Source: Candidatus Aenigmatarchaeota archaeon (GTDB taxonomy: Archaea > Aenigmatarchaeota > Aenigmatarchaeia > QMZP01). Taken from it: a stretch of DNA of 64,000 bases. Both the position numbers and the translations under genes were made by a program. The notes beneath the pieces were generated by a model. That model did not search any database. It was not told where the DNA came from and saw nothing but the letters and a program-made list of their open reading frames with translations. Positions 6,864 through 18,230 of the stretch are shown here, in pieces (positions within the stretch are counted from its first letter, which is position 1; the number at the start of each line of letters is the position of its first letter). The stretch covers positions 1,605 to 65,604 of the forward strand of contig JADHWJ010000005.1 in the NCBI GenBank assembly GCA_016783545.1. Direction: 5' to 3'.

Positions 6864-7079
6864 TTGGTATATATGAATTTACGATCAAATATTATTTTAG
6901 GTATCATATTGATTCTAATAGGAATCATAAGTCTTTTATTCACACTTGGTTTTCTTTCGATTGAGACAATAAGAGATATTGCAATTTCAAGTCCTATTGC
7001 TGTTATTATAATAGGAATTATACTACTTTTCATTAGGAATGATTCTAAAATAGAGCAAGTAAAGGAAGAAAAGGTTTAA
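6864..7079 (+). CDS. Small two-TM membrane protein
   Basis: Two long hydrophobic helices followed by a charged tail. The start may instead be the internal Met at 6873. Confidence 0.5.
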   Translation: MVYMNLRSNIILGIILILIGIISLLFTLGFLSIETIRDIAISSPIAVIIIGIILLFIRNDSKIEQVKEEKV

Positions 7080-7197
7080 AAGAAAGGAAACAATAAGAAA
7101 ATATGGACGATGATCCAAAGAACTTTATTTTGCTGGCAATAGTTGCAATATTATTTGTGGCAATGGTTCTGATATTATATTTTCAAGGAGGATTAGT

Positions 7198-7512
7198 ATG
7201 ATCATAACAAATACAGAGACAGTTCCTGGCAAACAGATAAAAGAAATTCTTGGTATATCCATGGGAAACACTGTGAGAGCAAAGCATATAGGAAAGGATT
7301 TCATGGCTGGACTAAAACAGATAGTTGGTGGTGAGATAGGGCAGTATACAGAGATGCTATCAGATGCAAGACAGGAAGCCATTAATAGAATGATAAACAA
7401 TGCCATAGACATGAAAGCAGATGCTATTGTAAATGTTAGGTTTACAACATCTTCAACAATGGCAGGCGCTGCTGAACTGTTGGCATATGGAACAGCTGTA
7501 AAATTGAAATAA
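7198..7512 (+). CDS. YbjQ/UPF0145 family protein
   Basis: 104 aa. Matches the family pattern (ITTTETVPGK...GGEI..Y...L...R..A...M...A...GA.AIV..RF). Confidence 0.85.
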   Translation: MIITNTETVPGKQIKEILGISMGNTVRAKHIGKDFMAGLKQIVGGEIGQYTEMLSDARQEAINRMINNAIDMKADAIVNVRFTTSSTMAGAAELLAYGTAVKLK

Positions 7513-7540
7513 TATTAACCAACTAATCCAATTATATTCT

Positions 7541-8287
7541 ATGTTAGAAGTCTGGCTATATTCAATATTTAGTGTGATAATAATAAGCCTGATAGCATTT
7601 ATTGGCATATTTACAATATTTCTAAGGATGGAGCAGCTAAGAAAAACACTTCTTTATATGGTAAGCCTTTCTGTAGGTGCTCTATTTGGTGGTGCGTTTA
7701 TACACCTATTACCAGAAGCAGCTGAAGCCGGCTTTACAATTGAAGTAAGCCTTTATGTTCTTTCAGGTATTGTTGTTTTTTTTATAACAGAAAAACTTAT
7801 TCATTGGAGGCATTGTCATGTTCCAACATGTGAAGAGCATCCACATCCATTTGCTTATATGAACCTTGTTGGTGATGGTGTTCATAATTTTATTGATGGT
7901 CTGATTATAGCAGCTAGTTATTTAGCTGGATTACCTGTTGGCATAGCAACCACAATAGCTGTAATACTTCACGAGATACCACAAGAGATTGGGGATTTTG
8001 GTGTGCTTATACATGGTGGATTTTCAAGAAAAAAAGCACTCTGCATGAATTTCTTGACAGCGCTTGTTGCACTTGCAGGTGTTGTTATTGCTCTCATTGT
8101 AGGAGGTTTTGTTGAAGGTCTGAGTACATTCTTACTACCTTTTGCAGCAGGCGGTTTTATCTATATAGCTGGTTCAGATCTAATACCAGAACTGCATAAA
8201 AGAACATGCGAATCAAAGTCTTATTTGCAATTGGCTGCGATAGTAATTGGAATGTTTTTGATGTATCTGTTGGTCTTCTTAGAATAA
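7541..8287 (+). CDS. ZIP-family zinc/divalent metal transporter
   Basis: Multi-TM protein with HNFIDGLII and HEIPQEIGDFGVL metal-binding motifs. Confidence 0.9.
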   Translation: MLEVWLYSIFSVIIISLIAFIGIFTIFLRMEQLRKTLLYMVSLSVGALFGGAFIHLLPEAAEAGFTIEVSLYVLSGIVVFFITEKLIHWRHCHVPTCEEHPHPFAYMNLVGDGVHNFIDGLIIAASYLAGLPVGIATTIAVILHEIPQEIGDFGVLIHGGFSRKKALCMNFLTALVALAGVVIALIVGGFVEGLSTFLLPFAAGGFIYIAGSDLIPELHKRTCESKSYLQLAAIVIGMFLMYLLVFLE

Positions 8288-13940: not shown

Positions 13941-14219
13941 TGCAACCGCCGGGATTTCCGAATTTTTTCTGGAAGGCCTTGACCTCTTTATTCGAACCCG
14001 GATCACAAGCTATCTTCTTTTTCTTGGAAGCGATCTGATTTCGAAGAAATCAGGAAGCTCCTTTTTGATGAAGCTTTTTGTTGAAAAAGCTTCTTGGAAG
14101 GCTTGGGTCCTTTAATGGAATGTTTTGGAAGCCATAATTTTTGCGAAGCAAAAATAGGCTCCTTTCTTGCTAAAGCTTCTTTGTTGAAAAGAAGCTTTCT
14201 ACCATTAGACTACGGTTGC
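13941..14219 (-). tRNA. tRNA-Gly(UCC) interrupted by about three intron regions (D-loop ~89 nt, canonical 37/38 ~83 nt, T-loop ~36 nt)
   Basis: Manually assembled exons:
- Acceptor GCAACCG/CGGTTGC with discriminator A.
- D arm GTCT-AATGGTA...GGAC.
- Anticodon arm CAAGC-CTTCCA[intron]A-GCTTG.
- T arm CCGGG-TTCGAAT[intron]-CCCGG.
Exons total 71 nt; 71+89+83+36 = 279, the gene length. Oligo-T follows the 3' end. The exon sequence resembles archaeal tRNA-Gly. Confidence 0.75.
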
Positions 14220-16053: not shown

Positions 16054-16635
16054 CTAAAAATTAAAGTCAATTTCTTCCAGTTCTTCTTCTTTCTTTGATT
16101 TTTTCTTTGCTGGAGAAAAATCTGTTTTTTCTTTAACAGGTTTCTTTGGTTCTGGAACTGCTCTTTCAACCGCTTCTTCAATACCCTTTTCTATGTCACT
16201 TGGGTTTTCAAGTTCAGCAGATTCTATTTTTTCTGCAATCTTATCAAGCATTTCCTCATTCATTTTTTTGACCTGTAAAACAGCTTCAATGCTTACAGGA
16301 CCTTCATTTGCAAATCTTGGTATTACATGAAAATGTACATGTGGAACCATCTGACCTGCTACTGCACCATTACTTTGAACAATATTAGCTCCCTGAGCTT
16401 TCATTGCATTTATTGCTTTCACAGCAACATTTCTAACACTCTGAAAAACATTTCCTATGTCTTCATTTTTCATTTCAAAAATAGTGCCTGCATGGTCCTT
16501 TGGTATAACTAATGTATGTCCGGGGTTTCTTGGATTTATGTCTAAAATTGCAATTACGTATGAATCTTCATATACCTTTTTAGCAGGTATTTTACCTGCA
16601 ATTATACCACAAAATATACATTGATTTTCTGTCAT
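16054..16635 (-). CDS. HIT-family nucleotide hydrolase/transferase with an extended charged C-terminal tail
   Basis: CIFCGII at the N-terminus and the histidine triad HVHFHVIP. About 55 aa of extra Lys/Glu-rich tail. Confidence 0.9.
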   Translation of the reverse strand: MTENQCIFCGIIAGKIPAKKVYEDSYVIAILDINPRNPGHTLVIPKDHAGTIFEMKNEDIGNVFQSVRNVAVKAINAMKAQGANIVQSNGAVAGQMVPHVHFHVIPRFANEGPVSIEAVLQVKKMNEEMLDKIAEKIESAELENPSDIEKGIEEAVERAVPEPKKPVKEKTDFSPAKKKSKKEEELEEIDFNF

Positions 16636-16720: not shown

Positions 16721-16899
16721 TGGGACTACCCGGATTTTCAGTTTTGCTGAAAATGTTTTGCTTCAGCAAAATAATTTGAACCGGGGTCTCGAGCTGTTTT
16801 TGAGCCATTCTTTCTTTTCCTTGAGGCTTTCTTGCGAAAGCTTCTGAAAGAAAGGCTCACCCAAAGCTCGGATGCTAGACCAAACTACACTATAGTCCC
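16721..16899 (-). tRNA. tRNA-Pro(UGG) with two introns (canonical 37/38 ~64 nt, T-loop ~40 nt)
   Basis: Manually assembled exons:
- Acceptor GGGACTA/TAGTCCC.
- Anticodon arm CGAGC-TTTGGG[intron]A-GCTCG.
- GAGACCCCGGTTCAAAT[intron]CCGGG matches archaeal tRNA-Pro.
Exons total 75 nt; 75+64+40 = 179, the gene length. Oligo-T follows the 3' end. Confidence 0.8.
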
Positions 16900-16920
16900 T
16901 TATAATAAAATATTATGTTT

Positions 16921-16984
16921 TTGTTTATAAATAAAGATTTCCACTGGTTAAGACTAGTGACTATTATTTAGGAAAATACCTTAG
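16921..16984 (-). promoter_or_regulatory. tRNA-Pro promoter plus conserved upstream block (second copy), abutting the tRNA-Thr 3' end
   Basis: Shares 23 nt and 17 nt identical segments with 14244-14300. TATA-like tttatttataaa lies about 28-30 nt upstream of the tRNA-Pro 5' end. Confidence 0.5.
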
Positions 16985-17090
16985 AGCCCCTGAGGCGATT
17001 TGAACGCCTAACCTACTGCTTACGAAGCAGTTGCTCTGGAACGCAAAACTGTGTAAAAAACAGAGTTTTGTACCGTTGAGCTACAGAGGC
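16985..17090 (-). tRNA. tRNA-Thr(CGU) with a ~34-nt intron at the D-loop/D-stem junction
   Basis: Manually assembled exons:
- Acceptor GCCTCTG/CAGGGGC (one G-U pair).
- D arm GCTC-AACGGTA[intron caaaactctgttttttacacagttttgcgttcca]GAGC.
- Anticodon arm ACTGC-TTCGTAA-GCAGT.
- T arm AGGCG-TTCAAAT-CGCCT.
- Discriminator U. Confidence 0.8.
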
Positions 17091-17123: not shown

Positions 17124-18230
17124 ATGCCCGTTCCTTTCAAAAAAGCCCTTTTCTGGAAGAAATCTATTTTTAAGACAGTTCAATGTCAACTTTGCCCAAG
17201 AAATTGTAAGATAGCTGAGAACCAAAAAGGTTTTTGTAGAGTAAAGGAAAATATACAGGGTAATCTATATTCTTTGGTTTATGGAAAACCATGTTCAGTG
17301 AACGTTGATCCAATAGAAAAGAAGCCATTATTTCACTTTGCTCCTGGAACACAGTGTCTTTCAATAGCCACTGTTGGATGCAATCTTAATTGCAAATTCT
17401 GTCAGAACTGGGAGATCTCAAGAGCTGAAGAAATTACAGAAAATGAAGTGGGAGGGTTTTTGGCTCCACAGACTTTTGTTGGAAGCCCTCAGGCTCCAAA
17501 AGGCTGTGATGAAATGAACCCAGAAGCTGTTGTGGAATTTGCAAAAAAATACAATGTACCTGGAATTGCATATACATATACAGAACCCACCATAGCACTG
17601 GAATATTATTTAGATATAATGAAACTTGCAAGAAAGGAAGGTCTTTACAATATATGGGTATCTAATGGTTATATTAATCCACTTCCAGCAAAGAAGGCTG
17701 CAAGATTTTTGGATGCAATAAACATGGATCTAAAGGGAGATTCTTTCTTTTATCAAAGCCTTTGTGGAGTTCCTAATGAAAATCCAATGAAAAATGCATT
17801 GAAAATATACAAAGAAAACGGCGTTTGGATAGAAATAACTAATCTCCTAATACCTGGTTTCAATGATAAGAAAAACCATATAGAAAAACTAGTAAAATGG
17901 GTCAAATCAAATCTTGGTATTGAAACACCTATTCATTTTTCCAGGTTTTATCCTCAATATAAAATGGTAAATAAAGAAAAAACCCCTCTAGAGACATTGA
18001 AGATGGCAGCGAATGTTGCTGATGATCTCTCTATGTGGCATGTTTACTTGGGAAATATTCAAAAAAATGCTAGAGAAAGCACATATTGCCCACATTGCGG
18101 AAAACTGGTAATAGAGCGGTTTGGGTATAAAATAATGAAAATGAATTTAAAATCCCTTAATAAAAAGAACTGGAAAAAACCGAATTATATGTGTAATTTT
18201 TGTGGAAAAAAACTTTTAATATTTGGATAA
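17124..18230 (+). CDS. amrS: AmmeMemoRadiSam-system radical SAM enzyme (PFL-activase-like)
   Basis: N-terminal CQLCPRNCKI...GFCRVKEN Cys cluster plus the radical SAM motif GCNLNCKFCQNWEIS. C-terminal CPHCG...CNFCG zinc ribbon. Confidence 0.8.
   Translation: MPVPFKKALFWKKSIFKTVQCQLCPRNCKIAENQKGFCRVKENIQGNLYSLVYGKPCSVNVDPIEKKPLFHFAPGTQCLSIATVGCNLNCKFCQNWEISRAEEITENEVGGFLAPQTFVGSPQAPKGCDEMNPEAVVEFAKKYNVPGIAYTYTEPTIALEYYLDIMKLARKEGLYNIWVSNGYINPLPAKKAARFLDAINMDLKGDSFFYQSLCGVPNENPMKNALKIYKENGVWIEITNLLIPGFNDKKNHIEKLVKWVKSNLGIETPIHFSRFYPQYKMVNKEKTPLETLKMAANVADDLSMWHVYLGNIQKNARESTYCPHCGKLVIERFGYKIMKMNLKSLNKKNWKKPNYMCNFCGKKLLIFG

Follow-up and report, generated by a model that had tools for sequence, protein, structure and literature searches.

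The two tRNA genes described here lie on the minus strand of a 64-kb stretch of a contig (the window) from a tiny uncultivated archaeon, where they fill the 488-nt intergenic gap between an ORF resembling the HIT family (16054-16635, minus strand; a putative assignment made from its N-terminal sequence alone) and a radical-SAM gene (17124-18230, plus strand). The gap contains no ORF of 80 aa or longer. An earlier reading of this DNA, made from the letters alone and called here the sequence-only reading, had marked positions 16721-17090, which match the two genes exactly. The tRNA-Thr(CGU) gene (16985..17090) has a precursor of 106 nt and a mature length of 72 nt. Its 5' exon (17072..17090, 19 nt, tRNA positions 1-20) and 3' exon (16985..17037, 53 nt, positions 21-73) are separated by a 34-nt D-loop intron at 20/21 (17038..17071). 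The tRNA-Pro(UGG) gene (16721..16899) has a precursor of 179 nt, a mature length of 75 nt and two introns, one of 64 nt at the canonical 37/38 position (16796..16859) and one of 40 nt in the T-loop at 59/60 (16735..16774). These leave a middle exon (16775..16795, 21 nt, positions 38-59) and a 3' exon (16721..16734, 14 nt, positions 60-73). The discriminator is U73 in tRNA-Thr and A73 in tRNA-Pro, CCA is not encoded in either gene and TTTT directly follows the tRNA-Pro gene.

ARAGORN in its default mode reported no tRNA in the whole 64-kb window, these two included. The Rfam tRNA model (RF00005) matched tRNA-Thr at 17090..16985 with 56.6 bits and a 35-nt insert in the D-loop; tRNA-Pro was not detected at the gathering threshold. 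A strict genome-wide BHB scan combined with splicing gave 181,395 candidates, too many for use, and dropped the true Pro 59/60 intron because its inner helix begins after a small loop. The strict scan was replaced by a custom parser anchored on the T-arm and the acceptor stem, and the intron calls come from that parser together with the folds. When the 34 nt were removed in silico, ARAGORN reported tRNA-Thr(cgt) of 72 nt with a canonical cloverleaf, and removal of 64 and 40 nt likewise gave a canonical tRNA-Pro(tgg) of 75 nt. Once the T-loop intron had been removed, the intron mode of ARAGORN (-i) located the 64-nt Pro intron unaided. Both spliced products have U8, G18G19, U33 and the T-loop UUCAAAU, and all seven acceptor-stem positions are paired, with one G-U in tRNA-Thr. 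The sequence-only reading had expected one canonical intron of ~64 nt and one T-loop intron of ~40 nt in tRNA-Pro, as the parser finds, and had allowed that tRNA-prediction software might move the exon boundaries; on the spliced sequences ARAGORN kept both cloverleaves. It had also placed a ~34-nt tRNA-Thr intron at the same relative position as the D-loop intron of tRNA-Gly, and the parser assigns both to 20/21. The comparison gene, tRNA-Gly(UCC) (13941..14219, minus strand), contains three introns, of 89 nt at 20/21, 83 nt at 37/38 and 36 nt at 59/60. The estimate of about six introns in three tRNAs in the window is therefore correct (Thr 1, Pro 2, Gly 3).

A BHB motif spans both splice sites at all three junctions, as judged by the parser, the folds and a random control. 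The Thr 20/21 junction is a strict hBHBh' in which the D-stem GCUC/GAGC forms the outer helix, followed by a 4-bp central helix AACG/CGUU, the bulges GU|A and CC|A and, within the intron, a 10-bp hairpin CAAAACUCUG/CACAGUUUUG (score H4, h4, h'7). This structure emerges when the entire precursor is folded to minimum free energy without constraints. The Pro 59/60 junction is also a strict BHB, with the T-stem as outer helix, a perfect central helix UUCA/UGAA, two AA|U bulges and an 11-bp helix UUUUGCUGAAG/UUUUCAGCAAAA closing the intron. Five splice registers (56/57 to 60/61) would give an identical mature sequence, and the central helix is perfect only at 59/60, as found by hand and by the parser. 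The Pro 37/38 junction is a relaxed BHB whose central helix UUUG/AAAA contains one G.A mismatch; this weak A-U helix is absent from the minimum-free-energy fold. Its intron forms the long hairpin that had been read as TGAGCC...GGCTCA, seen in the fold as GAGCC.../...GGCUC with an inner CUUUC-GCAA-GAAAG hairpin. Since the tRNA stem itself supplies the outer exon helix, that helix is not independent evidence, and the independent evidence for each BHB consists of the central helix and the intron helix. Random genomic pairs of position and length matched the BHB quality of Thr 20/21 and of Pro 59/60 in 0/300,000 cases each and that of Pro 37/38 in 7/300,000. Introns at each of the three positions are on record for archaea (PMC4090602). 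A reading of the introns as C/D-box guides was rejected, as on inspection box C (UGAUGA) is present in none of the three; Pro 59/60 has nothing more than CUGA tetramers.

The assembly to which the window belongs has 886 kb in 18 contigs and is 70% complete with an estimated contamination of 0.11%. Without its intron mode ARAGORN found 5 tRNAs in this genome and Rfam found 10 above threshold. The custom parser found 21 of 25 parsed tRNA loci to be interrupted, with ~43 introns, several of the four-intron parses being of low confidence; the commonest positions were 59/60 (n=13), 37/38 (n=8) and 20/21 (n=3). The genome-wide intron expansion that had been extrapolated from the window is borne out by this census, by the five tRNAs of ARAGORN and by the similarly small numbers in most relatives (below). 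The census is incomplete by at least one gene, a tRNA-Arg(UCU) with three introns on contig C17 (~83180-83470, plus strand), which Rfam, ARAGORN and the census all missed and which carries in one T-loop intron the ~70-nt module discussed below.

The assembly contains a single match to the catalytic domain of the splicing endonuclease EndA, a 392-aa ORF at C12:51847-53022. Residues 5-392 of this ORF align with residues 8-387 of PDB 4FZ2 (E = 3e-101), the three-unit epsilon2 endonuclease of ARMAN-2 (PMC3488258), and Pfam assigns tRNA_int_endo_N to residues 12-65 and tRNA_int_endo to residues 210-298. One polypeptide of ~390 aa spans the alphaN, alpha and betaC units, which is the mark of the epsilon2 type. 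The catalytic Tyr, His and Lys (ARMAN-2 Y236, H251 and K282) are kept, as is the lysine of the specificity loop (K157 here, K161 in ARMAN-2), and the segments FRIYFPG, WIHSKH, KKTF and GIYK align with ARMAN-2 residues whose roles have been described (PMC3488258). The ARMAN-2 enzyme cuts introns at 37/38 and 59/60 in vitro and its cleavage is abolished by K161A (PMC3239211, PMC3488258). The EndA found here is a full-length epsilon2 homologue and, going by its sequence, is predicted to be able to cut at non-canonical positions. Its closest homologues in named genomes, most of them matching at full length, reach 52-67% identity in the best segment, and nearly all are labelled Candidatus Aenigmatarchaeota or 'uncultured archaeon', with two 'Nanoarchaeota' and one 'archaeon'. 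The Micrarchaeota homologues show 40-45% identity, and these values together fix the lineage as Aenigmatarchaeota. In a 2018 survey epsilon2 was known only from relatives of Micrarchaeum (PMC5829648).

The RtcB ligase gave no match in this 70%-complete assembly. RtcB is present in 28/30 relatives, including 15/15 high-quality genomes, and so its absence here is likely due to the incompleteness of the assembly. In two relatives the RtcB matches are split within very long reading frames (G008:C2:319-3141, 1002 aa, and G031:C25:2264-6502, 1486 aa), which suggests that these RtcB genes contain inteins.

Taken with the intact spliced products, the BHB at every junction and the conserved EndA, the data make it very likely that the locus holds two functional archaeal tRNA genes whose transcripts need splicing by protein enzymes, with cleavage by an epsilon2-type EndA, and that their introns are part of a lineage-wide state. 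We infer that splicing does occur and that it would proceed in the following order. The single three-unit EndA would cut within the two 3-nt bulges of each BHB, dividing the Thr precursor into 19 + 34 + 53 nt and the Pro precursor into 40 + 64 + 21 + 40 + 14 nt. An RtcB-type ligase would then join the exons, and CCA would be added after splicing. The three introns occupy the three commonest intron sites of the genome (59/60, 37/38 and 20/21). Across the Aenigmatarchaeota, an endonuclease of broad specificity may tolerate introns nearly anywhere that a BHB can form, and the introns would be gained and lost rapidly between genera. The mechanism is of an ordinary, known kind, and what is known of splicing is left unchanged by the finding.

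The enzyme and the tRNA deficit were compared across the family and order in 40 relatives. Despite a completeness of 80-96%, Rfam detects only 5-28 tRNAs in most of them. EndA of the epsilon2 type is full length or nearly so in 35/40 and partial in four more, mostly on short or cut contigs. The sole genome without epsilon2, G001, belongs to the same family, gives a short alpha-type EndA match only and has 42 detectable tRNAs, the only normal count among the relatives; a covariance model of the intron module found no copies in it. This natural contrast within one family, although a single one, is consistent with the co-evolution of enzyme and tRNA proposed for ARMAN-2.

Comparison with related MAGs, which the sequence-only reading had suggested, showed that the intron sets at Thr(CGU) and Pro(UGG) differ between genomes. 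The tRNA-Thr(CGU) gene adjoins the same radical-SAM gene in several genera, so that the genes compared are in part syntenic orthologues, and nine different intron configurations occur within the family. There is no intron in G045, G059, G046, G041, G012 and G052. A single intron is found at 20/21 in the genome studied, at 59/60 in G023, at 17a/17b in G021 and at 32/33 in G013. Combinations are 20/21 + 59/60 in G016, 37/38 + 59/60 in G024 and G054, and 20a/20b + 37/38 + 59/60 in G010. The 20/21 intron of G016 has no similarity to that of the gene described here. Such a number of configurations within one family indicates that intron turnover is fast, and makes these orthologues a compact set in which gains and losses of introns could be dated. 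The Pro(UGG) gene varies in the same manner. It has no intron in G013 and G024, introns at 37/38 + 59/60 in G004, G042 and G056 (54-121 nt), at ~33/34 + 37/38 in G045, at ~33/34 + 37/38 + 59/60 in G023, and a single 50-nt D-loop intron at 17/17a in G005. Across the family the Pro(UGG) exons retain 75-89% identity; the introns can be aligned within a genus only (G004 vs G042, 24/24 nt). Intron gains in this family are repeated and lineage-specific and fall at sites able to form a BHB. A metagenome scan with the radical-SAM protein gave 80 loci, all 39-46% identical, none of which had a Thr-like tRNA start.

The origin of the introns is a separate matter, and the alternative that survives best concerns origin only and is compatible with splicing by EndA. 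Some or all of the three inserts could be copies of DNA-level mobile elements, either a module or MITE-like, which survived where a BHB could form. The sequence-only reading had described the tRNA introns as mobile-like, and for other families in this genome the description is apt: similarity over most of the intron between different tRNAs, as expected of transposed families, is seen in a Trp/Glu pair, whose 37/38 introns are identical over 33/33 nt, and in a pair of module copies in tRNA-Gly and in a tRNA on contig C13. The module is ~70 nt long and consists of a AAGCTTTTT-loop-AAAAAGCTT hairpin followed by CAAAAAGGAGC, a variable hairpin and GCTTCCAAG. It is present in Gly 37/38, in Gly 20/21 as a diverged copy, in the C13 tRNA (15/16) and in the tRNA-Arg(UCU) mentioned above. 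The covariance model finds it in 25/47 family genomes with up to 29 copies, and most of 30 sampled loci are tRNA introns at 37/38, 59/60, 58/59, 25/26 and 20/21 of many different tRNAs. RNAalifold gave a module consensus containing the GGAGC/GCUUC helix only, because MAFFT had aligned the first hairpin out of register.

For the Thr and Pro introns themselves the description as mobile-like has weak or partial support; similarity over most of the intron to that of a different tRNA is found for none of the three. The sequence-only reading had noted a gaagcttt core common to the canonical Pro intron and tRNA-Gly, and here the match is stronger than it had claimed. Within the Pro 37/38 intron, AGAAGCTTTCGCAAGAAAG agrees with the Gly 20/21 intron at 18/19 nt in the same orientation, and the form AGAAGCTTT[C/A]GCAAGAAAG common to the two occurs nowhere else in the genome. 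The block has a BLAST E of 0.036 against the genome and 1.5e-4 against the 4-kb intron set, with a shuffle p of ~0.005. Furthermore, GAAGCTTT occurs 87 times in the genome (both strands) and in 5/43 parsed introns, an enrichment of ~48-fold (Poisson 1e-7) in a count that includes two introns from outside the set that defined the motif. A second proposed likeness, a hairpin shared by the Pro T-loop intron and the Gly D-loop intron, arose from a mixture of strands, as Pro had been read in the RNA sense (ttttgctgaagcaaaac) and Gly on the antisense (plus) strand, its RNA sense being uuuuugcuucgcaaaaa. Aligned locally in the RNA sense, Pro 59/60 and Gly 20/21 reach a best score typical of dinucleotide shuffles (p ~0.4), and with the reverse complement of Gly 20/21 the score is higher, ~2.5 SD above the shuffle mean. 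In that comparison the 6-bp stem alone aligns and the loops are UGAA vs UUC. The genome has only four matches to the strand-symmetric pattern TTTTGC-N3-5-GCAAAA, two of them inside these two introns, though the pattern was chosen post hoc and its p of ~0.01 is an estimate that allows for about six candidate hairpins. The strand-symmetric likeness is suggestive at best.

Several observations argue against a mobile origin of the three introns. Neither the HMM nor the covariance model of the module recognises Thr 20/21, Pro 37/38 or Pro 59/60, and inspection of the sequence showed no flanking target-site duplication at any of them. The block in Pro 37/38 matches a fragment of the module and is not collinear with it. 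For Thr 20/21 and Pro 59/60, nothing similar (no match at E < 0.01) turned up in the genome, in the 75 introns collected or in the introns of orthologues. An origin of these inserts as mobile DNA is judged improbable, though it is the best of the alternatives.

Copies of the module are also found outside tRNA genes. On either side of a full copy at C12:6521-6589 (within C12:6507-6610, locus L198, ~1487-1590) stands the 15-nt sequence CATGATTGACTTTGC, a perfect direct repeat, and an FtsX/MacB-like permease ORF (MIDFAFK...) has its start codon within the downstream repeat. None of the 15 registers of the repeat yields a convincing BHB, so that it is not evident that this copy could be spliced as an intron; it resembles an insertion that has duplicated its target. 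More copies of this kind lie at C13:75349-75417 (minus strand), C7:33645-33717 (plus strand) and, in relatives, L206 (G052:C93:6094-6163), L203 (G043:C72:6469-6537) and L225 (G024:C37). Their settings include one between two operon genes just upstream of the ribosome-binding site, one directly after an apparent 23S rRNA 3' end and several in tandem in an intergenic region. The copies at C13:75349 and, in a tRNA intron, at C13:17161 share their variable hairpin. A more general proposal, which we regard as doubtful, is that tRNA introns in this family were seeded by a structured ~70-nt mobile DNA module inserting in transcribed non-coding DNA and persisting where a BHB permits its removal by epsilon2. 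Were this so, C12:6521-6589 with its 15-nt repeat would be the footprint of a fresh insertion, Pro 37/38 would be a decayed and rearranged descendant of the module, and the proposal would supply a concrete route for intron arrival, one that the literature terms unknown.

The second alternative takes the Thr and Pro genes for pseudogenes in decay, broken by insertions, with other copies supplying the function. A second, intron-free tRNA-Thr(CGU) does exist at C7:29542-29614, in a cluster duplicating four host isoacceptors, and the intron-bearing Thr gene is therefore not strictly indispensable. Against this, a second Pro(UGG) was not found in the assembly, the stems and universal nucleotides are all intact after splicing, every junction has a BHB, and interrupted genes are the rule in about 40 relatives. 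The combination of conserved exons with intron turnover also favours functional genes over pseudogenes. The C7 cluster itself looks foreign. It lies in an island of 53% GC (C7:28950-29960; locus L081, ~6950-7960) in a genome of 36% GC, and its four intron-free tRNAs (Asn-GUU, Thr-GGU, Thr-CGU and Glu-CUC) duplicate intron-bearing host genes, with 56-66% identity to the host isoacceptors. The Glu tRNA has a bacterial-type look. No counterpart of the island turned up in 46 family genomes, and relatives and phage records alike gave generic matches at the level of tRNAs only; the island was probably acquired horizontally. The pseudogene explanation is judged very improbable, and the intron-bearing Thr and Pro genes are most likely functional. 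Finally, that the inserts are artefacts of assembly or binning, or self-splicing introns of group I or II, is scarcely credible, given that 34-64 nt is far below the size of either group, that no Rfam intron family matches, that independently assembled genomes of many relatives show inserts at the same positions and that estimated contamination is 0.11%.

The reading of the locus as two functional, spliced tRNA genes has its closest parallel in ARMAN-2 (Candidatus Micrarchaeum acidiphilum), another DPANN archaeon with a three-unit EndA that keeps the catalytic triad and the specificity-loop lysine (Fujishima et al. 2011, PMC3239211; Hirata et al. 2012, PMC3488258). There, too, introns are found at 37/38 and 59/60, T-loop introns in a tRNA-Pro among them, and strict and relaxed BHB motifs occur side by side. 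However, ARMAN-2 belongs to a separate phylum-level lineage, and the proportion of interrupted genes is 84% of parsed loci here as against 56% reported for ARMAN-2. The Thermoproteales are a second parallel. According to PMC4090602, which summarises the transposed intron families of Sugahara et al. 2008 and Fujishima et al. 2010, their tRNA genes have up to three introns, with non-canonical positions including 20/21 and 59/60, and similar introns in different tRNAs and at different positions imply spread. Unlike the archaeon studied here, the Thermoproteales are Crenarchaeota, with a heterotetrameric (alpha-beta)2 EndA, and of the three introns described here only one has any family link, the 19-nt block. 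A limited literature search, which does not prove absence, returned no publication linking Aenigmatarchaeota to epsilon2 or to interrupted tRNA genes, and their occurrence together in this phylum is apparently previously undescribed. The pairing of epsilon2 with heavily interrupted tRNA genes now includes Aenigmatarchaeota besides Micrarchaeota.

These results explain the near-absence of tRNAs from the output of standard tRNA finders for small DPANN genomes (5 with ARAGORN and ~10 with Rfam in this case). As such finders miss interrupted tRNAs, those with D-arm introns included, inferences on completeness and codon usage drawn from their output are misleading. Among the relatives, the 1.9-Mb assembly G038 has 75 detectable tRNAs. 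It contains a dense array of more than 10 intron-free tRNA genes at ~144750-148050 of contig C74, which may be a mobile-element array or the result of a mixed bin.
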